NCBI GenBank assembly: GCA_038279365.1
Contig: JAYODI010000011.1
Span: 13,395 to 45,555, forward strand
Reading direction: 5' to 3'
Origin: Candidatus Latescibacterota bacterium
GTDB lineage: Bacteria > Latescibacterota > UBA2968
DNA length: 32,161 bases
In this document: positions 13,120 to 26,206 of the stretch, piece by piece
Numbering within the stretch: the stretch's first letter is position 1
Layout of the letters: each line of letters opens with the position of its first letter
Made by a program: the position numbers and the translations under genes
Notes under the pieces: model-generated
Databases searched by the model: none
What the model was told of the DNA's origin: nothing
What the model saw: the letters and a program-made list of their open reading frames with translations, nothing else

Positions 13120-13159
13120 AAAAAAGTCTGAAACATCTTGCGATGTATCAGACTTTTTT
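13120..13159 (-). terminator. Terminator immediately downstream of tRNA-Gln(TTG)
   Basis: AAAAAAGTCTGAAACATC-ttgc-GATGTATCAGACTTTTTT stem with one mismatch and a U-tract on the minus strand. Confidence 0.8.
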
Positions 13160-13232
13160 GGTTGCCCCACAGGGATTCGAACCCCAATTCCTGGAACCAA
13201 AATCCAGTGTCTTGCCGTTAGACGATGGGGCA
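13159..13232 (-). tRNA. tRNA-Gln(TTG), CCA encoded
   Basis: Reverse complement TGCCCCATCGTCTAACGGCAAGACACTGGATTTTGGTTCCAGGAATTGGGGTTCGAATCCCTGTGGGGCAACCA folds as a cloverleaf with anticodon TTG. Confidence 0.96.
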
Positions 13233-13262
13233 ATAATATACTGGCTTAATGTTTGGAGATCT

Positions 13263-13293
13263 ATAATAAACAAAAAGACGTGTTTTTTGTCAA
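13263..13293 (-). promoter_or_regulatory. Putative promoter of tRNA-Gln(TTG)
   Basis: Perfect TTGACA (13293-13288), then TATTAT at a long 19-nt spacing. Confidence 0.4.
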
Positions 13294-13550
13294 TAGCCAG
13301 CATCTTTTCTCATTAAGAAAAGCATTTTTAGCCACATATTACAACACTATATACAGGTTTAAAGCTTCAAGACTCAAATCAACAACACTGCTTTATCCCA
13401 ATAAAAAACAATGCCTTATAATATGGGTGAAGAAAAATTTTATAGTTTATCCAAAAAATCGCACAGAAACAAGCCTTCCAAATTCATTTTCTTTGATCCA
13501 ACCATTGCACATGCCAAAATCACACCCTGTTTCGCCCCACATAATCGCAA

Positions 13551-15542
13551 TCAAATTGACACAGACCATTGCTGCCCATCAACCACCACCTGAAGCATCG
13601 ATTCCAACAAAGATACAGATGGCATAACACCGTTACCTTTTGTAGGCACAAACACAAATGCACGCCGTTCCGAAACACACAAACCCGACAAACGCACCCA
13701 ACGCGCAGGTGACTTTTCTGCGTAATTAGGGCACCAAAACATCGCATCATCTCGCATAACCAGCTCAGTATTTCCACACCACGCAAATGACACACAAATA
13801 TCATTTGCCAACCCCACACGATATCCACCGGCAACAACTTCAATCTCAGATTCACCAGGAAACAACCACGAATTTGTCCAGGTATGTGGCGTTGCAGAAA
13901 CGATCTCATCCACCACCGCCAACCAAACCGCATCATCCGATACAGGCATCAATACTGTGCGACGTACTTCGGCTTCTGCATCAGCTGTATAGCCCGAAAA
14001 TGTACTTTGCAAAATACCAATCTGATCTTGCACATCGCCCGTTGTTTTACCCATACGTGTATCACTGGCATTGGATATCACCTGCATCGCTTTATTCAAA
14101 ATCCGCTCATTGGGCAACACAGGTTCATCTTCAATATAAACTGTATTATGCGACTGACAATGAAGCACCCAATTTCGCGCCACATCACCCGTATACACCC
14201 ACCGCCCCGGATCCACAATCACAGGGTAATTCAAAGCATCATAATGCACCGTCAAATTGTCTTCGTGTGAATGCCCTGCATGTGTGGGCCCATTGTCGAG
14301 AATCACCAACGACTGCGTATCTGGGTTGCGCAATGCGCCCACACCACCCTCAGGAAATGTGATCTGGCGAATCGCCTCGCCAGCATCAGCCTCCCACGTT
14401 TGCCCATTGGACAACCAGAGACTGAAATAGGTGGGTGACACACCATGTTGAAAACGCACATCAGGGAAAATACAGCGCAACAACGCATGGGTGTTTCGCC
14501 ACGTGCCCACCCGATCAGAATCTGACAACAAAGGCATATTGCCATCAGGTGTCACCAGTGCGTCGACAAACACACCCATCTCCTTCAACCGTTGGCCATA
14601 AACATCGGCCCAGGGTTCATCATTCATCTGACCCAGCAAAAAACTCGATCCATACCACCGAATGCACCCACAATGATAGCCCGTCGATTTTTCCCAGTGT
14701 ACGCCATCGGCAAAAATCGCTCGGTTCAAACTCGATTCCATCGAATTGCGCGCCATGTGTTTCCACACAGACATCCCCGTCACTTCAGGCAAAGACATCG
14801 CCCAGAAATACACCGCCTCCATTTGCATCGATGTAAAATTGTGCTCATGTATTTTAATACCACGCCCAGCAACCATATCAAACAACAGCAAACACCGATG
14901 CAACAACACAACATTGCGTTTGGGTGTCATTTCAGAAGCATGCAAAATCGTCCAGTATGCCCACCACCAATGCGTCAACCGAATGAAAATATCCAACTCA
15001 CCAAATGGCGGGTGCAAATTGCTCGGCCCCATGGCGTGCATGCCCCTATAAAATGCTTCACCCGGAAACGGCACCTTCTCCATATAAAAATCCCACTGGT
15101 CCATCAGCGCATCAAAATATCGTCGTTCCGATTTTTCCCAGTATGCACGTGCCAAAGAGGTATACCATCGATGCCGGCCCAAACCGCGAATGGTTTGAGG
15201 ATCTTCATGTTCATACGCCGAAAAATCAAATGTTTCGCGATCCACCGCAATAAACCGATCACAATATGCATTAGAGGCCCCATACATTCGCCCGTCAACC
15301 GCATGATCGGCAAGGGTCTTTTCCCAGGCATATTCTTCTGGATCATATGCCTGAGCCAAACGCGCAATTTCAGCCAAGTTTTTTGGCTCAAAAAACAAAC
15401 GTGGCACCTTGCGGTTCCGCAAATACGTTAACAAATTCTCTGCAAAATCACCCGCATCCCATTGTGCCACCAGATCCGAGCGAAATCGATCTCGCAAATC
15501 CCTTATCGCCGCGTCGTATTCCGCATCCAACACATCTGCCAT
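13551..15542 (-). CDS. Heparinase II/III family protein (polysaccharide lyase-like)
   Basis: DGVHWEKSTGYH, PDG..PLLSDSD, GP.HAGHSHEDNL, VDPGRWVY, SHNTV. GAGGGG RBS. No clear signal peptide. Confidence 0.85.
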   Translation of the reverse strand: MADVLDAEYDAAIRDLRDRFRSDLVAQWDAGDFAENLLTYLRNRKVPRLFFEPKNLAEIARLAQAYDPEEYAWEKTLADHAVDGRMYGASNAYCDRFIAVDRETFDFSAYEHEDPQTIRGLGRHRWYTSLARAYWEKSERRYFDALMDQWDFYMEKVPFPGEAFYRGMHAMGPSNLHPPFGELDIFIRLTHWWWAYWTILHASEMTPKRNVVLLHRCLLLFDMVAGRGIKIHEHNFTSMQMEAVYFWAMSLPEVTGMSVWKHMARNSMESSLNRAIFADGVHWEKSTGYHCGCIRWYGSSFLLGQMNDEPWADVYGQRLKEMGVFVDALVTPDGNMPLLSDSDRVGTWRNTHALLRCIFPDVRFQHGVSPTYFSLWLSNGQTWEADAGEAIRQITFPEGGVGALRNPDTQSLVILDNGPTHAGHSHEDNLTVHYDALNYPVIVDPGRWVYTGDVARNWVLHCQSHNTVYIEDEPVLPNERILNKAMQVISNASDTRMGKTTGDVQDQIGILQSTFSGYTADAEAEVRRTVLMPVSDDAVWLAVVDEIVSATPHTWTNSWLFPGESEIEVVAGGYRVGLANDICVSFAWCGNTELVMRDDAMFWCPNYAEKSPARWVRLSGLCVSERRAFVFVPTKGNGVMPSVSLLESMLQVVVDGQQWSVSI

Positions 15543-15565
15543 TTTAACCCCTCACAATCTTAGAG

Positions 15566-16018
15566 CTATGATTCCGATTCCTCAGAATGATTCTTGAACG
15601 CTGCAAACCCAATCAATTCCCCATCAGGCCCTTTTGCAAATATAAAATCATACGCCCCTCGCAAATCATCTTCAACAATCTCTGCACCCAGTTTTTTTAA
15701 CTGCTTTCGCGTTGCTTCCAAATCACGCACAGGAAAACCAAAATGATTAACACCCACAATATCTTTGCGCACAAGAGGGGTTTGAGCGCTATCGACTCTA
15801 TCGTAATGACAAATAATTTATATCAAAGCCTGACATTCAGAATGAAAAAGATACTGCATCCTAAAATGTTCTCGTTCGATCCCCATTTGACCTTCTGCAG
15901 AAAAACCCAAGGCCTCATAGAATTTCATAGATCGCTCAAAATCTGATATGCTCACACAACCATGAAAACCACGGCTTAAGATGGGGATATTCTGAGGCAC
16001 GATTCTTTTGTTTTGCAT
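15566..16018 (-). pseudogene. VOC (glyoxalase-like) protein interrupted by an in-frame TAA at 15818-15820
   Basis: Track ORFs 15818..16018 and 15566..15772 share one frame: FHGCVSISDFERSMKFYEALGF...ALI*IICHY...VNHFGFPVRDLEAT...GPDGELIGF. Confidence 0.85.
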
Positions 16019-16162
16019 ATAAAAACGCTCTTAATTGTATGGAACAGCCGTTGGATGACCATTTCTGCTATCTTCCTCAAAAGACAAATATGAAACGCGA
16101 ACGATGATGCGCAACCCTTTTTTAAAAGGGTGTTCAAATTCTAATCACAAAAATATAAAAAC

Positions 16163-16202
16163 AAAAAAGAGGGTCACGATAACATAATCGTAACCCTCTT
16201 TT
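16163..16202 (-). terminator. Terminator downstream of tRNA-Gln(CTG)
   Basis: Minus strand GAGGGTTACGAT-tatgtt-ATCGTGACCCTC-TTTTTT. Confidence 0.82.
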
Positions 16203-16247
16203 GGTATGTTGATTCATTGAAAAACGCTTTAAAGATCCGTGGATTTC

Positions 16248-16321
16248 TGGTTGCCCCTCAGGGATTCGAACCCCGATTACCTGATCCAGAGTCAGACGTC
16301 TTGCCGTTAGACCAAGGGGCA
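16248..16321 (-). tRNA. tRNA-Gln(CTG), CCA encoded
   Basis: Reverse complement TGCCCCTTGGTCTAACGGCAAGACGTCTGACTCTGGATCAGGTAATCGGGGTTCGAATCCCTGAGGGGCAACCA, anticodon CTG. Confidence 0.96.
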
Positions 16322-16388
16322 AAACCAAACTCAAAAGTCTATTTTTTAGGCTACACAACATCCAAAAAAAATGACGCCTAAGTTAATT

Positions 16389-17807
16389 TCAAACAACAAC
16401 TTCCAATATTTTCCGCAAACGCCGAAGGCATGTTTCTTTTCCCAAAACAGCCATAAGTTCAAACAGCCCTGGGCCAAAACCAACCCCACAAAGCCCCAAC
16501 CGCGTAGGATGAATGAGGTTGGATGCCGACATATTCAACTCGCCAGCCAAGGTACGGGTTGCACCTTCGATATCCGTTTCTTTAAAAGAATCCAAGGCCT
16601 CTAACCGTTCAATATAGGCCCGAAGACGTTCGGGTGTATCTGTTTTCCAATGTTTTTTGAGCGTCTTTTCGTCATAACCAGTCGGCTCTTGGAAAAAATA
16701 ACCCGTTTGTCGCAAATCTTCAAGCGTATTGAGGCGCGGTTGCAAAAGTGTTGCTATTTGAGTCAATTCATCACGACGGCGATCCACATCGGCAGATTCC
16801 AACCATCCTTCAGAAATCCAAATCGGAATGGCGTCTTCAACAATCTTCTCAACAGGGCGCAAACGCATTTGTTCACCGTTGAGCCATGTCAGTTTTTTGA
16901 GATCAAAAACCGTATCGCGTGTGTGCATGCCTTCAAGCGAAAACGCCTCTATCAACGCATCGTGAGAAAACACCTCGCGCTCATCACCCGATGACCAGCC
17001 CAATAAGGCCAAAAAATTAAACAATGCTTCGGGTAAAAACCCTTGTTCCTGATATTCGGTAACCGTTGTGGCACCATGGCGCTTGCTCAACTTGCTGCCA
17101 TCTTCACCCAAAATCAGTGTGGAATGACCATATTCTGGCACATCCCAACCCAGCGCTTGAAACAGCATAATTTGCTTGGGCGTATTTGACAAATGGTCGG
17201 CACCACGAAGCACAAGTGTCACACCCATATTGTGATCGTCAACCGCAACCGCCAAATTATAAACCGGTGACCCATCAGAACGTGCCACCACAAAATCTTC
17301 GATTTCAACATTGCCCCAGCGCTGTACGCCTCTGATTTTATCGGTCCAAACCGTGTCACCATCTGGCACACGAAAGCGAACCACCTTTGATCGCCCCTCG
17401 GCTTCAAATGCCGCCTGTTGTTCGGCCGTTAAATCGCGATTATAACGCACATGCCTTTTTTCAGCTTGTGCTTTTTTGCGCATGACATCCAACTCTTCGG
17501 GTGTTTCGTAGGCATAATAGGCATGGCCACTTTCCAGCAACTGTGCAACCGCCGCTTTGTGTACTTCTGCATTGTGCGATTGAAACACCGGTTCGCCATC
17601 AAAGGCAATGCCCAACCACGCCAAACCATCCAAAATGGTTTTCAGCGAATCATCGGTATACCGTTCACGGTCTGTATCTTCCACACGCAACAGCAACTTG
17701 GCACCGTAGTGCTTGGCGTACAAATAGTTAAACAACGCTGTACGCGCATTGCCAACATGGAACCCCCCGGTAGGGGATGGCGCAAATCTTAAAATAGAAT
17801 CAGACAT
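16389..17807 (-). CDS. gltX: Glutamate--tRNA ligase
   Basis: RFAPSPTG.FHVGNARTAL (HIGH), LRVEDTD, VDDH.MGVT.VLRG.DHLSNTPKQ, KLSKRHG (KMSKS), plus C-terminal anticodon domain. Confidence 0.97.
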   Translation of the reverse strand: MSDSILRFAPSPTGGFHVGNARTALFNYLYAKHYGAKLLLRVEDTDRERYTDDSLKTILDGLAWLGIAFDGEPVFQSHNAEVHKAAVAQLLESGHAYYAYETPEELDVMRKKAQAEKRHVRYNRDLTAEQQAAFEAEGRSKVVRFRVPDGDTVWTDKIRGVQRWGNVEIEDFVVARSDGSPVYNLAVAVDDHNMGVTLVLRGADHLSNTPKQIMLFQALGWDVPEYGHSTLILGEDGSKLSKRHGATTVTEYQEQGFLPEALFNFLALLGWSSGDEREVFSHDALIEAFSLEGMHTRDTVFDLKKLTWLNGEQMRLRPVEKIVEDAIPIWISEGWLESADVDRRRDELTQIATLLQPRLNTLEDLRQTGYFFQEPTGYDEKTLKKHWKTDTPERLRAYIERLEALDSFKETDIEGATRTLAGELNMSASNLIHPTRLGLCGVGFGPGLFELMAVLGKETCLRRLRKILEVVV

Positions 17808-17814
17808 AAAAAAA

Positions 17815-17885
17815 GCTACCAGCTTTCAGCGATCAGCTTTTCAGTCAAAATACCAAATAGAAGCTGACGGCTGACCGCTCATAGC
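17815..17885. repeat. Imperfect palindrome built from heptamer repeats, just upstream of gltX
   Basis: Left arm GCTACCA GCTTTCA GCGATCA GCTT; right arm AAGCTGACG GCTGACC GCTCATA GC (complementary units). Confidence 0.65.
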
Positions 17886-17897
17886 ATATAAAGTTTT

Positions 17898-17993
<96 letters not shown>

Positions 17994-18026
17994 GCGCTAA
18001 TTTCTCATATTAAAACGTAGGCGATA

Positions 18027-18055
18027 AAAGTAACAAAGCCCTACTGTAAATGCAA
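18027..18055 (-). promoter_or_regulatory. Putative promoter for tRNA-Ser(GCT)-gltX
   Basis: TTGCAT-N17-TACTTT, about 35 nt upstream of the tRNA. Confidence 0.45.
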
Positions 18056-18072
18056 GGTAAAATCAAAACGAC

Positions 18073-18130
18073 AAAAGTCAGACGCCAAAAGGTAAATATT
18101 TCTTCGTTTGCCTTTTGGCGTTTGACTTTT
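18073..18130. repeat. 24-bp inverted repeat between the two tRNA-Ser genes (probable terminator or processing hairpin)
   Basis: AAAAGTCAGACGCCAAAAGGTAAA-N10-TTTGCCTTTTGGCGTTTGACTTTT; 22 of 24 pairs are Watson-Crick. Confidence 0.8.
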
Positions 18131-18139
18131 TGTATTTTA

Positions 18140-18227
18140 TGGCGGTGGGGGTGGGATTCGAACCCACGGACCCGTGAAGGTCAACGGTTTTCAAGACCGC
18201 CCGATTCAACCGCTCTCGCACCCCACC
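18140..18227 (-). tRNA. tRNA-Ser(TGA), CCA encoded
   Basis: Reverse complement GGTGGGGTGCGAGAGCGGTTGAATCGGGCGGTCTTGAAAACCGT...GTGGGTTCGAATCCCACCCCCACCGCCA, anticodon TGA. Confidence 0.96.
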
Positions 18228-20142: not shown

Positions 20143-20643
20143 ATGCGCTCAAACGAATACATTGAAGAAGCGATAGAAGAGTCTTATCTCATTGGTCTCA
20201 ATGAAAAAGAGATTCGTGCCAATCTGGATCAATTCATCGATATTTGCGGTCGCATCATTCGCGAACATGTACACGACAAACAAAAAATGCAAATATTGGC
20301 CGAAAAATTGGCACGTGCACGCGCACTAAGTTTAATTGAAGAACGCCAAGATGGTGAGTGGAACGAAATCCAACCCACGACACCACAGCCAAATCTTGCC
20401 GAGCGCGTAGCAAGAAACAAACGGCTCATTTTGCGTGCCATTTCCGAATGTGATCCCCAACTGGTTGAAAAAATAGAAAAAGCACGGTTTCCAAAAGACG
20501 AACTCAAAATGCCCAAGTTAAACCCTTGGGAAGGAACCGTAAGGGTCGGAAAACCACGTAGTTTGTTGTTCAAAATTGGCTCTCTCGCAGTGATACTCAT
20601 TATCTTACTACTCATTTATCTTTCTCTTTTACAGCATGTGTAA
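20143..20643 (+). CDS. Hypothetical protein with a C-terminal transmembrane helix
   Basis: 166-aa ORF filling the gap between nnr and carB; charged helical body and a hydrophobic tail IGSLAVILIILLLIYLSLL. Confidence 0.75.
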   Translation: MRSNEYIEEAIEESYLIGLNEKEIRANLDQFIDICGRIIREHVHDKQKMQILAEKLARARALSLIEERQDGEWNEIQPTTPQPNLAERVARNKRLILRAISECDPQLVEKIEKARFPKDELKMPKLNPWEGTVRVGKPRSLLFKIGSLAVILIILLLIYLSLLQHV

Positions 20644-20771
20644 ATCCATTAACTTACATCATCTATATAACTTGTGATGTGCCTGCGCCCCCCGCATGTG
20701 GGTTGCAGGCATTTCTATGGTAAGCCAACATACGAACAAATCCTTCACAAACAATTAGCTGAAAGCCTTTT

Positions 20772-22223
20772 ATGCCCAAACGTACCGATATCAAAAAGAT
20801 TATGCTCATTGGCTCAGGGCCTATTGTCATTGGACAAGCCTGTGAATTCGATTATTCTGGCACCCAAGCCTGCAAAGCCCTTCGAGAAGAAGGATATGAA
20901 GTCATCTTGGTCAACAGCAACCCTGCCACCATCATGACCGACCCCGAAATGGCAGATCGCACCTATGTCGAACCCGTAACCCCCGAGGTGTGTGCAGCCA
21001 TTATTGAAAAAGAACGCCCCGATGCACTCTTGCCAACATTAGGTGGACAAACAGGTCTGAACACCGCAATGGCTTTGCACGAACAAGGTGTTCTTGAAAA
21101 ATTCAATGTCGAAATGATCGGTGCCAAACCCGACGCGATTGAAAAAGCTGAAAATCGCGAAAAGTTCCAACAAGCCATGCGCAAAATCGGTTTGGACTTT
21201 CCCAAAGGTCGTTTTGCCTATACACTCGATGAAGCGTTGGCAGTGATTGACGAAATTGGATTTCCAGCCATTATCCGCCCCTCTTATACACTCGGTGGCA
21301 CAGGTGCAGGGACGGCATACAACCTTGAAGAATATAGACTGGCAGCCGCACGTGGCATCGACCTGTCTCCCACATCTGAAATTTTGGTTGAAGAATCGAT
21401 CATTGGTTGGAAAGAATACGAACTTGAAGTGATGCGCGATCACAACGACAACGTGGTCATTATTTGTTCCATTGAAAATGTAGATCCCATGGGTGTACAC
21501 ACAGGCGATTCCATCACGGTGGCTCCTGCGCAAACACTTACCGACAAAGAATACCAGGTCATGCGCGATCAGGCCATTGCCTGTATTCGTGAAATTGGTG
21601 TTGAAACCGGTGGTTCCAATGTTCAATTTGCGGTCAACCCCGACGATGGTCGGTTGGTCATCATTGAAATGAACCCACGGGTTTCACGCAGTTCGGCATT
21701 GGCATCCAAAGCCACGGGTTTTCCCATTGCCAAAATTGCCGCCAAACTCGCCGTGGGATACAGCCTCGATGAAGTACAAAACGACATCACCCGCGAAACC
21801 CCAGCATCTTTTGAACCCACCATTGATTACTGTGTCATCAAAATTCCACGTTGGACATTTGAAAAATTCCCCCAAACAGTTGACTCACTGGGCACACAAA
21901 TGAAATCGGTGGGTGAAACCATGGCCATTGGTCGAACGTTTAAGGAAGCACTGCAAAAAGGCTTGCGGTCTCTCGAAATTGGCCGCGCCGGATTTGGTGC
22001 CGATGGCAAAGACCACAACATTCAAGAACTCTCGCGCGAAGCCTTAGAACACGGGTTGCGTGTGCCCAACTCACAACGCATGTTTTTTATCAAAGCCGCA
22101 TTCGATATGGGTTTGTCGGTCAACGACATCTTTGATGCCACCAAAATAGACCGGTGGTTCTTAGAAAACATGCGCGAAATTGTTGAAGTCGAAAAAGAAC
22201 TCGCCGCATTAATGACACCCTAA
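20772..22223 (+). CDS. carB: Carbamoyl-phosphate synthase large subunit, N-terminal part (483 aa)
   Basis: [55 protein letters not shown]. Ends inside the oligomerization domain at ...MTP*. Confidence 0.95.
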
Positions 22224-22278
22224 TTTGCCGTCTGCCGCTCAACATTCACACTTACACAACCAGACAGAATACCATCTT

Positions 22279-24090
22279 ATGACCAAACAACATACCTTTG
22301 AAGACCTCAAATCGCGCATCTCACGCAATGATCTTTTAAAAGCCAAAAACTATGGCTTTTCAGATCGTCAATTGGCAAATATCTGGAAATCAGACGAATG
22401 GACCATTCGTGCATTGCGAAAAGAAATGGGTGTATTGCCTGTTTATAAAACCGTAGATACCTGTGCTGCCGAGTTTGAAGCCTATACACCCTATCACTAT
22501 TCAACATATGAATCGGAAACCGAAGCCTTTCGCTCTGATCGCAAAAAAATCATGATTCTCGGTGGGGGCCCCAATCGCATTGGGCAAGGCATCGAGTTTG
22601 ATTATTGTTGCTGTCACGCATCTTTTGCCCTTAAAGAAGACGGATATGAAACCATCATGGTTAACTCCAACCCCGAAACCGTCTCCACAGATTACGATAC
22701 CTCAGACAAACTCTATTTTGAACCCTTAACAACCGAAGATGTGCTCAATATTGCAGATCTGGAACAACCCGATGGCACCATTGTACAATTTGGTGGACAA
22801 ACCCCATTAAACCTTGCCCGAGATCTTGAACGCGGCGGGGTAAAAATTGCGGGCACATCGCCCGATGCCATAGACTTGGCAGAAGACCGCAAACGCTTTG
22901 GCGCGCTCATTCAACAACTCGGCATTCGCCAACCCGAAAACGGTACCGCAATAAATGCCGACGAAGCCATTGCCATTGCCGAACAAATTGGCTACCCTGT
23001 GCTTGTGCGCCCTTCCTATGTATTGGGCGGGCGAGCTATGGCCATTGTCTATGATCGCGATGCGCTTATTTCTTATATGCGCAATGCCATTGATGCATCA
23101 CCCGAACGCCCCATACTCATAGATCGCTTTCTCGAAAACGCACAAGAATTTGACGTCGATGCCGTGGCCGACGAAACAGCTGTGGTCATTGGTGGCATTA
23201 TGCAACATATTGAAAGTGCAGGCGTTCATTCTGGAGACAGCGCGTGTGTATTGCCGCCTTATTCCATCTCCGACAACAACCTCGCCGAACTGCGCACCCA
23301 CACCCATGCCTTGGCCAAAGCCCTCAACGTTGTTGGGCTCATGAACATTCAATTTGCCATTCAAGATGGCAATGTCTACATCATTGAGGTCAACCCTCGG
23401 GCTTCGCGTACGGTTCCATTTGTGAGCAAATCCATTGGTGTGCCACTGGCCAAAATAGCCGCACGCGCTATGGTTGGGCGCACCCTGAAAGAGCAAGGAT
23501 TTACAGAAGAAGTACACATGAAACATATAGCCGTGAAAGAAGCCGTTTTGCCCTTTAACAAATTTCCGGGTGTCGATACCGTTTTGGGCCCAGAAATGAA
23601 ATCAACAGGTGAAGTCATGGGCATCGACTACGATTTTGGTTTAAGCTTTCAAAAAGCACAATTGGGTGCAGGTGTGCGTTTGCCCGTAGAAGGTACCGTT
23701 TTTGTAAGCGTCAATGACCGCGACAAAGAAGCGGTCATTCCCATTGCCAAAAAATTATCCGAACTCAATTTTAAGTTGGTTGCCACACGTGGTACGGCAG
23801 CCCATCTTCAAAAACATGGTGTCCCATGTGACGAGATTCTCAAAATTCAAGAAGGACGTCCCAATATTCTTGATGCCATCAAAAACGACGACATCGCCCT
23901 TATGATTAACACACCCGCTGGCGAACAATCTCAAACCGCAGATCCAGAAATTCGCCGTGCGGCCATCCAATATGGTTTGCCCTACACCACCACATTGGCA
24001 GGTGCCATTGCAGCGGTAGAAGGCATTGCATCTTTAAAACGCAACAACAAAGTGAGTATTTTGTCGCTTCAAGAGTATCACGCACAATAA
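22279..24090 (+). CDS. carB: Carbamoyl-phosphate synthase large subunit, C-terminal part (+1 frame relative to the N-part)
   Basis: GFSDRQLA, YKTVDTCAAEF, GGGPNRIGQGIEFDYCC, EVNPRASRTVPF, MGS domain, SLQEYH. First ATG at 22279; frame open from 22216. Confidence 0.93.
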   Translation: MTKQHTFEDLKSRISRNDLLKAKNYGFSDRQLANIWKSDEWTIRALRKEMGVLPVYKTVDTCAAEFEAYTPYHYSTYESETEAFRSDRKKIMILGGGPNRIGQGIEFDYCCCHASFALKEDGYETIMVNSNPETVSTDYDTSDKLYFEPLTTEDVLNIADLEQPDGTIVQFGGQTPLNLARDLERGGVKIAGTSPDAIDLAEDRKRFGALIQQLGIRQPENGTAINADEAIAIAEQIGYPVLVRPSYVLGGRAMAIVYDRDALISYMRNAIDASPERPILIDRFLENAQEFDVDAVADETAVVIGGIMQHIESAGVHSGDSACVLPPYSISDNNLAELRTHTHALAKALNVVGLMNIQFAIQDGNVYIIEVNPRASRTVPFVSKSIGVPLAKIAARAMVGRTLKEQGFTEEVHMKHIAVKEAVLPFNKFPGVDTVLGPEMKSTGEVMGIDYDFGLSFQKAQLGAGVRLPVEGTVFVSVNDRDKEAVIPIAKKLSELNFKLVATRGTAAHLQKHGVPCDEILKIQEGRPNILDAIKNDDIALMINTPAGEQSQTADPEIRRAAIQYGLPYTTTLAGAIAAVEGIASLKRNNKVSILSLQEYHAQ

Positions 24091-24157
24091 ATTACGAGAA
24101 GGGAAAACAATCCTTCTTTTGCGTGTTTATTGTCATTTCATATCCGTTAGACACCCT

Positions 24158-26206
24158 ATGACGCCCACATTCCGTCACATCTTCATTTGCCTTTTTTGCG
24201 CCATCACATTGGCATCTTGCAAAAGTGTGTACTACAACACTTTTTACAATGCCAAACACAGCTATCAATTAGCCGAGCAAACGCGCAAAGATTCGGAAAC
24301 ACCAGGCAGTCGTTTAACCCCAGCAGTCTATCGCGAGCTCTACAAACGCACCATTGCCAAAGCTTCTGCGGTGCTGGAACTCTATCCCAAAAGCAAGTGG
24401 GTCGACGACGCGCTCTTGCTCATTGGCAAATCGTTTTATTGGCGTGAAGAATACAGCGATGCACTCACCAAATATCAAGAACTTCAAGAAAACTTTCCCA
24501 AAAGTGCCTTGTTGTCTGAAACCATTTATTGGCAAGGGCTCACATTATGGGCATTGGATCGTCCAGAAGAGGCCCGTTTTTCATTTTCGTATATCAACGA
24601 AAGTGAAGAGCCCGAACTCTTTGGCTTGGCCAACCTGGCATTGGCCGAAATGGAAGCCGAATCGCAAAACCACGAATCGGCCATTGAAGCCTATCAAAGT
24701 CTTATTGTTACTTTGGGCAAAAAACACAAATTACTTGCCCATGCTTGGCAAGGCATTGGCAACAGTCTCTACGAATTAGGACGCTATGATGAAGCCTTAG
24801 ATGCTTATAAAAATGTGCTCGCGTCCAACCCCGAAAAACAAATCAACTTTGACACACGCCTCCAAATTGGCACCACCCTTGAAAAACAGGGTAAGTTGGA
24901 CGAAGCTTTAGCGGCATACGACAACATTCTCAAAATCAAACGCCTGCGCATTTATGAAGCAGAAACACAACTCAAACAAGCCAATGTTTATCGCACCAAA
25001 GAATTTTATGCCGTCTCAGAAGAAACATATAACCAAGTCATTCAAAAATATCCGCGCAGCAAATACAGTGCTGAAGCCTATTACCGAATGGGCCTCATCA
25101 GCCAACAAGTGCACAAAGACCTTGAAAAAGCCAAAACGCTCTTTGAAAATGCCAGCAAAGAAAGCCGTCAATCAGAAGCAGGCGAAGCAGCCCTTCAAAG
25201 ACGCAAAGATCTCATGCTGTTAGAGCGGTATCGCCTTCAAGCCGACGACGCCAAAGACCCACAAACAGCCATTGTGCCACTTTTCAATTTGGCAGAGCTG
25301 TATCTCTTTAGCTTGGGTGAAACCGACTCGGCACTGGCTACTTACCAACAAGTGCTCACCTTGGCAGATACCACATCGTTTGCCCCCAAAGCACTTTATG
25401 CCATTGGTCTTATTTATGCCGACAGTTTAAAAAATGATTCTGCTGCAAGCGAAAACTTTCAAAAACTCATCAACGAATATCCCAACACACCCTATGCCAT
25501 AGATGCACGAAAACGCATTCAACAAAATCGTACAGACGATGCGTTGGCAGAAGCACAATTTCTCGAAGCTGAAGACCTCAAACGAGAAGGTCTGCCCCCC
25601 AGTGATTACATGCCTCTCTTACAGCAAATTGCCACAGAGTATCCCAAAAGCCTCTATGCCCCACAGGCACTTTTTGCTGTTGCCTGGGCATATGAAAATG
25701 ATTTGGATGAATTAGACAAAGCCAAAAATATTTATCAACAAGTTGCCGATCATTACCCGCTGACGCGGTTTGCAGAAATTGCCACCGAAAAACTTTCGGG
25801 TGATTTTTTAATGCCGCCCAAACCCAAAGAAGCACCACAAGATTCGACACACCAACCATCACAAAAAGCACCATCAGAACCTGCACCAACAGGTTTGCAA
25901 TCACCCTCAAATTTGGAAATCATAGATATCAAAGAAGCAGATTCTCCTCCCGAATTGATATCTTCAAGACCACCCCAATATCCCGCTTCGGCAGAAAATG
26001 ATGGACGCCCCGTTACGGTGGTCGTACGCTTGCTCGTTTCACACGACGGCACCGTTAACAAAGCCGAACCGGTGAGCGGCCCCAAAGCCTTTTACAGCGC
26101 AGCCATTTTATCGGCCGTCAAATATCAGTTTCGCCCAGCACAAAAAAATGGCCAAGCTCAAAGTGTTTGGATCGAACTCCCCATGACCTTTCTTCCACCA
26201 GATTAA
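24158..26206 (+). CDS. TPR-repeat lipoprotein with Pro-rich linker and C-terminal TonB domain
   Basis: Signal peptide and lipobox LASC; YYNTFYNA...YPKSKWVDDALLLIGK; many TPRs (YP.S.Y..EA); C-terminal PQYP..A...VVVRLLVSHDGTV..A...A.KYQFRPA.KNG. Confidence 0.85.
   Translation: MTPTFRHIFICLFCAITLASCKSVYYNTFYNAKHSYQLAEQTRKDSETPGSRLTPAVYRELYKRTIAKASAVLELYPKSKWVDDALLLIGKSFYWREEYSDALTKYQELQENFPKSALLSETIYWQGLTLWALDRPEEARFSFSYINESEEPELFGLANLALAEMEAESQNHESAIEAYQSLIVTLGKKHKLLAHAWQGIGNSLYELGRYDEALDAYKNVLASNPEKQINFDTRLQIGTTLEKQGKLDEALAAYDNILKIKRLRIYEAETQLKQANVYRTKEFYAVSEETYNQVIQKYPRSKYSAEAYYRMGLISQQVHKDLEKAKTLFENASKESRQSEAGEAALQRRKDLMLLERYRLQADDAKDPQTAIVPLFNLAELYLFSLGETDSALATYQQVLTLADTTSFAPKALYAIGLIYADSLKNDSAASENFQKLINEYPNTPYAIDARKRIQQNRTDDALAEAQFLEAEDLKREGLPPSDYMPLLQQIATEYPKSLYAPQALFAVAWAYENDLDELDKAKNIYQQVADHYPLTRFAEIATEKLSGDFLMPPKPKEAPQDSTHQPSQKAPSEPAPTGLQSPSNLEIIDIKEADSPPELISSRPPQYPASAENDGRPVTVVVRLLVSHDGTVNKAEPVSGPKAFYSAAILSAVKYQFRPAQKNGQAQSVWIELPMTFLPPD

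Follow-up and report, generated by a model that had tools for sequence, protein, structure and literature searches.

In the stretch of DNA analysed here (the window: 32,161 nucleotides (nt), positions 13,395 to 45,555 of contig JAYODI010000011.1 in assembly GCA_038279365.1), carB, the gene for the large subunit of carbamoyl-phosphate synthase (CPS), is split into two adjacent reading frames, and the first of these ends on a CCC codon followed directly by the stop codon TAA. We interpret the split as an ancient and fixed gene fission, such that CarB is very probably made as two polypeptides from two adjacent genes, a view strongly supported by every sequence comparison described below. A first-pass annotation of this DNA had left a choice between such a two-chain CarB and a CarB whose synthesis depends on recoding. 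The former is borne out, as relatives share the same break residue, the junctions are variable, and in one family the two halves are not even linked; the latter conflicts with relatives that are split at the same residue with unrelated spacers, frames, stop codons and last codons. The parts of the locus, in positions of the window, are:

20772..22223, plus strand: carB N-half gene, 483 amino acids (aa) plus TAA, with the carboxyphosphate ATP-grasp domain and the beginning of the oligomerization domain
22212..22223, plus strand: end of the N-half with the putative "slippery site", ATG ACA CCC TAA, then T
22224..22278, plus strand: spacer between the carB halves, 55 nt, A/C-rich, intergenic, no signal detected
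22225..22227, plus strand: TTG, first start codon of the +1 open reading frame (ORF), 1 nt past the TAA; a possible, unconserved alternative start
22279..24090, plus strand: carB C-half gene, 603 aa plus stop, with the remaining oligomerization domain, the carbamoyl-phosphate ATP-grasp domain and the allosteric domain

The layout of the junction is as the first-pass annotation had described it. The sequence from 22206 to 22227 reads GCA TTA ATG ACA CCC TAA T TTG, and the N-half does end in ATG ACA CCC TAA at 22212-22223. The +1 frame is closed upstream by TAA (22210-22212) and TGA (22213-22215) and is open from 22216 (CAC CCT AAT TTG), so that the two frames can join only within a stretch of about 8 nt, which CCC_T overlaps. 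The ORF in the +1 frame (22225..24090) encodes 621 aa from the TTG and 603 aa from the next ATG, at 22279, and the length of 1105 aa given for a fused product is correct (483 + 19 + 603).

Each half is recognisably a part of CarB. Both exceed the cut-off of 599 bits set for the NCBIfam carB equivalog profile NF003671, which has 1058 positions: positions 1-474 are matched by the N-half with 846.7 bits, and positions 477-1057 by the C-half with 869.1 bits. Judged by these alignments, both halves are complete and no part of CarB is missing, which agrees with the earlier impression that both were intact. With TIGR01369, which has a cut-off of 1027 bits, the N-half (789 bits) and the C-half (749 bits) each stay below the threshold, as expected for halves. 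The N-half aligns to residues 1-478 of the 1073 residues of Escherichia coli CarB (PDB 1bxr and others; 944.8 bits), with a second alignment stretch at residues 556-968. CarB consists of two homologous ATP-grasp units, and the N-half matches the C-half region in every genome, at 37-40% identity; ATP-grasp families are matched by both halves. Relative to the profile, the new termini carry only about 5 extra residues at the end of the N-half and about 12 at the start of the C-half.

In relatives with a contiguous gene, the segment at the break point is short and variable (for example AAGNLEDVG, LSSSIDKDS or REDVLADAA) and lies between the ...WFL...E.EL... and ...LLRRAK..GFSD... helices, so that the break falls within a change-tolerant loop. 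This position, near residue 480 of E. coli CarB, is one that we take, from the E. coli structure papers, to be inside the oligomerization domain. A split intein with protein trans-splicing was considered as well and rejected, as there is no extra sequence and the halves abut at profile positions 474 and 477; no intein domain was found among the Pfam domains of the N-half relatives.

The split is conserved throughout the order to which the genome of the window (G000) belongs. We used the N-half as query in this genome and 30 relatives, together 31 genomes from two families and nine genera, and in all 31 the match ends at query residue 481-483. The open frames are 341-612 aa long, the shortest being cut by contig ends, and none is near 1070 aa. 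Except in genome G001, whose carB is interrupted by contig ends, a C-half lies on the same strand, a few hundred bases further downstream. In a wider sample of the phylum (151 genomes, 143 of them with a match at E <= 1e-100), a short N-half frame is present in G000 and in every other member of three families, designated f1 (29 of 29), f2 (19 of 19) and f4 (2 of 2), which makes 51 genomes. In family f3, which belongs to the same class, most frames are 1030-1186 aa long and thus contiguous. Further short frames occur in family f8 (G034, G039, G047 and G051) and in family f14 (G043), the f14 halves being adjacent. A few other short frames may reflect contig ends, namely G087 (493 aa), G105 (584 aa), G113 (606 aa) and G126 (407 aa), all from f3, and G053 (641 aa) and G063 (437 aa) from f10; that in G069 is due to a contig end.

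Family f8 deserves separate mention, as the N- and C-halves are on different contigs in all four of its genomes. In G039 a 435-kb contig carries the N-half in its middle part, at 289-291 kb, and the roughly 2.4 kb downstream contain no C-half. Since these halves are unlinked, a two-chain CarB apparently works without any read-through.

A set of 80 distant loci from many other phyla, which among the matches listed have 59-72% identity to the N-half, comprises 68 contiguous genes, no split gene and 12 genes at contig ends, the shortest extension being 71 aa at a single locus. The only Chitinophaga locus of this set (L047) is contiguous. Among the 120 best database protein matches of similar length, 41 are 472-501 aa long and 40 of them share their end point with the N-half, the remaining 79 being 704-846 aa long and in many cases labelled "partial". 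One of the short proteins, P0005 (93% identical), carries the NCBI name carbamoyl-phosphate synthase large subunit, originates from a metagenome-assembled genome (MAG) of Candidatus Latescibacterota and is not labelled "partial".

Three side observations concern these same proteins. For P0004-P0006 (501 aa), the N-half has been called from a position (M/VPAIPTHVGRRH...) that precedes the conserved start, MPKRTD, by 18 codons, probably as a result of over-extended start calling. The N-half of P0099 (496 aa, 80% identical) extends 14 residues beyond the usual end (...GLMAPQRHGVPCPNDRTI), showing that variation is tolerated in the tail behind the last helix. Three of the four f8 genomes searched (G034, G039 and G051) carry, beside their split and unlinked carB, a contiguous carB paralogue of 1074-1090 aa (for example G034:C62:16304-19510 and G039:C11:183990-187172), about 53-56% identical to the halves of the window; they may possess two CPS enzymes, for example an arginine-specific and a pyrimidine-specific one.

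While the break residue is constant, the junctions differ. The first-pass annotation had proposed an alignment of related genomes, in which a conserved CCC_TAA with a conserved +1 register would speak for recoding, and variable spacers and frames for fission. We compared 26 loci with adjacent halves (L001-L023, L109, L113 and L114; L021 and L023 were read by eye), and the outcome is variability. The C-half is in frame 0 relative to the N-half in 5 loci, in frame +1 in 9 and in frame +2 in 12; the spacers, measured from the stop codon of the N-half to the aligned start of the C-half, range from -4 through 2, 6, 10 and 13 to 55 and 58 nt; and TAA, TGA and TAG are all used as stop codons. The last sense codon is CCC in only one of the 26 loci, the window itself, the others ending in ACC, GAC, GCA, CCA, GAA, CCG, GAT, GCG, AAC, GTC or CAG. 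In the genus designated g5 the junctions are tight, with an ATGA overlap (-4) in L010-L012 and mostly 2 nt elsewhere (TGA or TAA, CC, ATG; L003-L009), and to judge from these overlaps and gaps the two halves are translationally coupled there. The genus of the window is unlike g5 in having spacers of 13-55 nt. Of its other members, G002, with an N-half that is 93% identical, ends in ACC TAA followed by a 13-nt spacer. G001 ends in GAA TAG and has a 55-nt spacer of a sequence unlike that of the window, with the +1 frame closed by a TAG 8 nt past the stop. Even the nearest database protein, P0001 (97% identical, also 483 aa), ends in ...LMTT where the window has ...LMTP.

In the process that we envisage, CarB is interrupted within the oligomerization domain, at a short variable linker around residue 480 of the E. 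coli protein, and ribosomes would terminate normally at the TAA at 22221-22223. For the C-half, ribosomes would initiate separately at the conserved ATG 22279, where the unstructured, A/C-rich leader of 55 nt may stand in for a Shine-Dalgarno (SD) sequence. Together with CarA, whose gene lies elsewhere, the two chains would form an enzyme of three chains, as biochemical work has shown for the split enzyme of Aquifex; it is their conservation, together with the Aquifex precedent, which leads us to expect that they assemble and are active. The gene carA is indeed absent from the window, as had been noted, and is found on another contig of the same genome (G000:C6:12152-13258, open frame of 373 aa), where the product matches the CarA profile TIGR01368 with 524.1 bits in a genome search (cut-off 307.35), so that the partner glutaminase subunit is intact; as the N-half query matched no second carB in G000 either, the enzyme is taken to be needed.

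The start of the C-half is most plausibly ATG 22279 (MTKQHTF). This codon aligns with the ATG or GTG start of the C-half in every relative (M-T/S/K-KQHT...) and is therefore a conserved start. There is no promoter- or terminator-like site inside the spacer, which is compatible with co-transcription, and we presume that both halves are transcribed together. Across 20400-24400 such sites number 4 and 6, respectively, against means of 5.7 and 5.6 in shuffled sequences. A contig from an RNA library (X12) covers 21700-22225 and continues with a loose end of 22 nt that matches the spacer with 2 differences. RNA-library cover is absent over 22255-22513, which is neutral as to co-transcription or expression.

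Some points weigh against gene fission with separate initiation. ATG 22279 has no recognisable SD sequence, no AGGAG-like motif being present ahead of it. The first-pass annotation had drawn attention to this missing ribosome binding site, and the absence is real, but it is not distinctive: the N-half's own ATG 20772 likewise lacks an SD sequence and only 25-40% of the starts in the genome have one (among 2979 crude first-ATG starts genome-wide, 25% for a 5-mer and 40% for a 4-mer motif, where random positions give 2% and 6%). With a spacer of 55 nt, tight coupling of the g5 type is ruled out, so that we can only infer how the C-half is initiated. The RNA-library contig reaches no further than about 22247 and forms no bridge to the C-half. 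Finally, CCC_UAA is a context in which some +1 slippage can occur, and a trace of fused product is possible.

The best of the alternatives retains two chains and moves the start of the second. The TTG at 22225 is the first start codon of the ORF and lies 1 nt past the TAA, and in genus g5 the C-half starts 2 nt past the N-half stop or overlaps it, which makes coupled restart habitual in the clade. A C-half made from this TTG by termination-reinitiation would be a 621-aa chain with an 18-residue His/Gln-rich extension. This is unlikely, as the 18-codon extension has no counterpart in G001 and G002, whose C-halves start at an ATG aligned with 22279; in G001 the stretch upstream of the C-half start is closed by stops, and TTG is a weak start codon.

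It is very unlikely, too, that accidental and unselected slippage at CCC_UAA yields a low level of fused 1105-aa CarB beside the separate chains in this one strain, and nothing in the comparisons supports such a product. If it were made, it would represent a "re-fusion by recoding", possibly a first step towards re-joining a split gene.

A programmed +1 frameshift, in which tRNA-Pro re-pairs from CCC to CCU at CCC_UAA and the fused 1105-aa CarB is the functional product, is extremely unlikely. The sequence permits such a shift: the frames can be joined only within 8 nt, CCC_T overlaps these, and from 22216 onwards the +1 frame is open; CCC before a stop codon is also a shift-prone context. However, CCC is the last codon at just one of the 26 loci, that of the window. 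Two members of the same genus end in GAA TAG (with the +1 frame closed) and ACC TAA, a 97% identical protein ends in Thr-Thr, all three frame relations occur among relatives, the halves are unlinked in f8, and the 19 "insert" codons are unconserved even within the genus. Stimulatory elements are lacking as well. There is no SD-like run in the 30 nt upstream of the junction, which agrees with the earlier remark that a prfB-like internal SD is not visible. No stable RNA structure was found at the junction (minimum free energy -5.3 kcal/mol, z = +0.92, where shuffled sequences average -7.8), and the junction and spacer gave no Rfam match at E up to 1. The stop, TAA followed by T, is not a weak one. 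The genome contains tRNA-Pro genes with the anticodons GGG (cognate for CCC), CGG and TGG, and CCC is its commonest proline codon (27,320 of 72,225, or 38%).

The same genome provides a control in the form of the true programmed site in prfB (G000:C196, locus L106, 1487-1510), where GGGAGG TAT CTT TGA C constitutes a canonical +1 site with an SD-like element, a 3-nt spacer and CTT TGA C; the prfB family match starts at profile position 14. The carB junction resembles it in bare geometry only, the downstream part being in the +1 frame and the zero frame ending in a stop, and differs in having no internal SD, no weak stop and no conserved site or frame.

The presence of CCC_TAA together with an open +1 frame at the carB break is no more than chance gives. 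Among 4601 stop-to-stop ORFs of at least 200 codons in the genome, 36 end in CCC and 30 in CCC_TAA; 43% of these long ORFs are followed by 21 or more open codons in the +1 frame; and a 55-nt spacer lands in the +1 frame one time in three. We regard the motif at the break as a coincidence of one strain.

An artefact or decay, that is, a 1-nt assembly indel or a recently broken pseudogene, can be practically dismissed, although an indel would leave just such a change of frame within one gene: X10 record 4 (spanning 21889-22554 with 1 substitution) and X7 record 26 (spanning 22113-22409 with 0 differences), contigs from public runs of two other studies, run across 22210-22225 with no gap, the split is common to all 51 genomes of the three families f1, f2 and f4, both halves have 78-93% protein identity without internal stops, carA is intact, and a second carB in the genome of the window was not matched by the N-half query. 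Since these contigs are free of gaps, the assembly indel that had been left open at the outset is excluded, and the proposed check of this region against sequence data confirms the break. A third contig, X5 record 15, stops at 22228, with 0 differences up to that point.

As to the age of gene fission in this group, a quick maximum likelihood tree of 48 N-half sequences unites the split sequences of f1, f2 and f4 (23 rows; Shimodaira-Hasegawa-like approximate likelihood ratio test (SH-aLRT) 93), and joins them, with weak support (88), to f6 and the contiguous f3 clade. The split sequences of f8 and f14 (5 rows, support 98) group with the contiguous f7 and f10 and a named Latescibacterota MAG, and this MAG (L031) is inside the clade of the phylum with a support of 97. 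Parsimony on the N-half tree requires 2 changes for the split forms. One clade of all 20 split rows among 38 is not rejected by the approximately unbiased (AU) test (p = 0.094), for which L126 and L076 (long branches) and near-duplicate g5 rows were left out and the group was named after the tree had been seen. The phylum is probably Latescibacterota, with which the name of P0005 and the position of L031 are consistent.

Elsewhere in the window, upstream of the carB region, four tRNA genes are encoded on the minus strand (13159-18227): tRNA-Gln(TTG), tRNA-Gln(CTG), tRNA-Ser(GCT) and tRNA-Ser(TGA).

These results have some practical consequences. The short variable linker in the oligomerization domain is a permissive cutting point, used by the whole order and f4 and by a second group with adjacent (f14) or unlinked (f8) halves. 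A break exactly on a textbook shift-prone motif can still be plain old fission, and a handful of related genomes is sufficient to settle the choice between fission and frameshift. Both genes can already be found in public databases, where they bear the ordinary name; we suggest that they be named CarB N-terminal and C-terminal sections and not frameshifted pseudogene.

Our literature search found no paper on carB fission in Latescibacterota, on a carB frameshift, or on the carB split of Methanocaldococcus jannaschii. In that archaeon, CarB is made of sections of about 480 and 620 aa, which would place its break at the same point as in the window, and the two genes are near each other without being adjacent. 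Compared with E. coli CarB (PDB 1bxr/1jdb), the domain order in the window is the same and the match over residues 1-478 is strong; the difference is between one chain of 1073 aa and two chains.

The closest parallel is the CPS of Aquifex aeolicus, which the first-pass annotation had named as a natural case of a split CarB. In Aquifex, where the genes are unlinked, the oligomerization domain precedes the break, which falls at the boundary between the homologous halves. In the window the genes are adjacent, with a 55-nt spacer, and it is the oligomerization domain itself that is interrupted, at about E. coli residue 480. In both systems the large subunit comes from separate genes, each of them intact and conserved. 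The split enzyme of A. aeolicus (CPS.A and CPS.B, with GLN) assembles and is active (Ahuja et al. 2001 J Biol Chem, as described in the review PMC6022934), the chains and the glutaminase forming one active complex; recoding plays no part in it. The split carB of the window is thus an arrangement of a known kind in a new clade, which is probably Latescibacterota.

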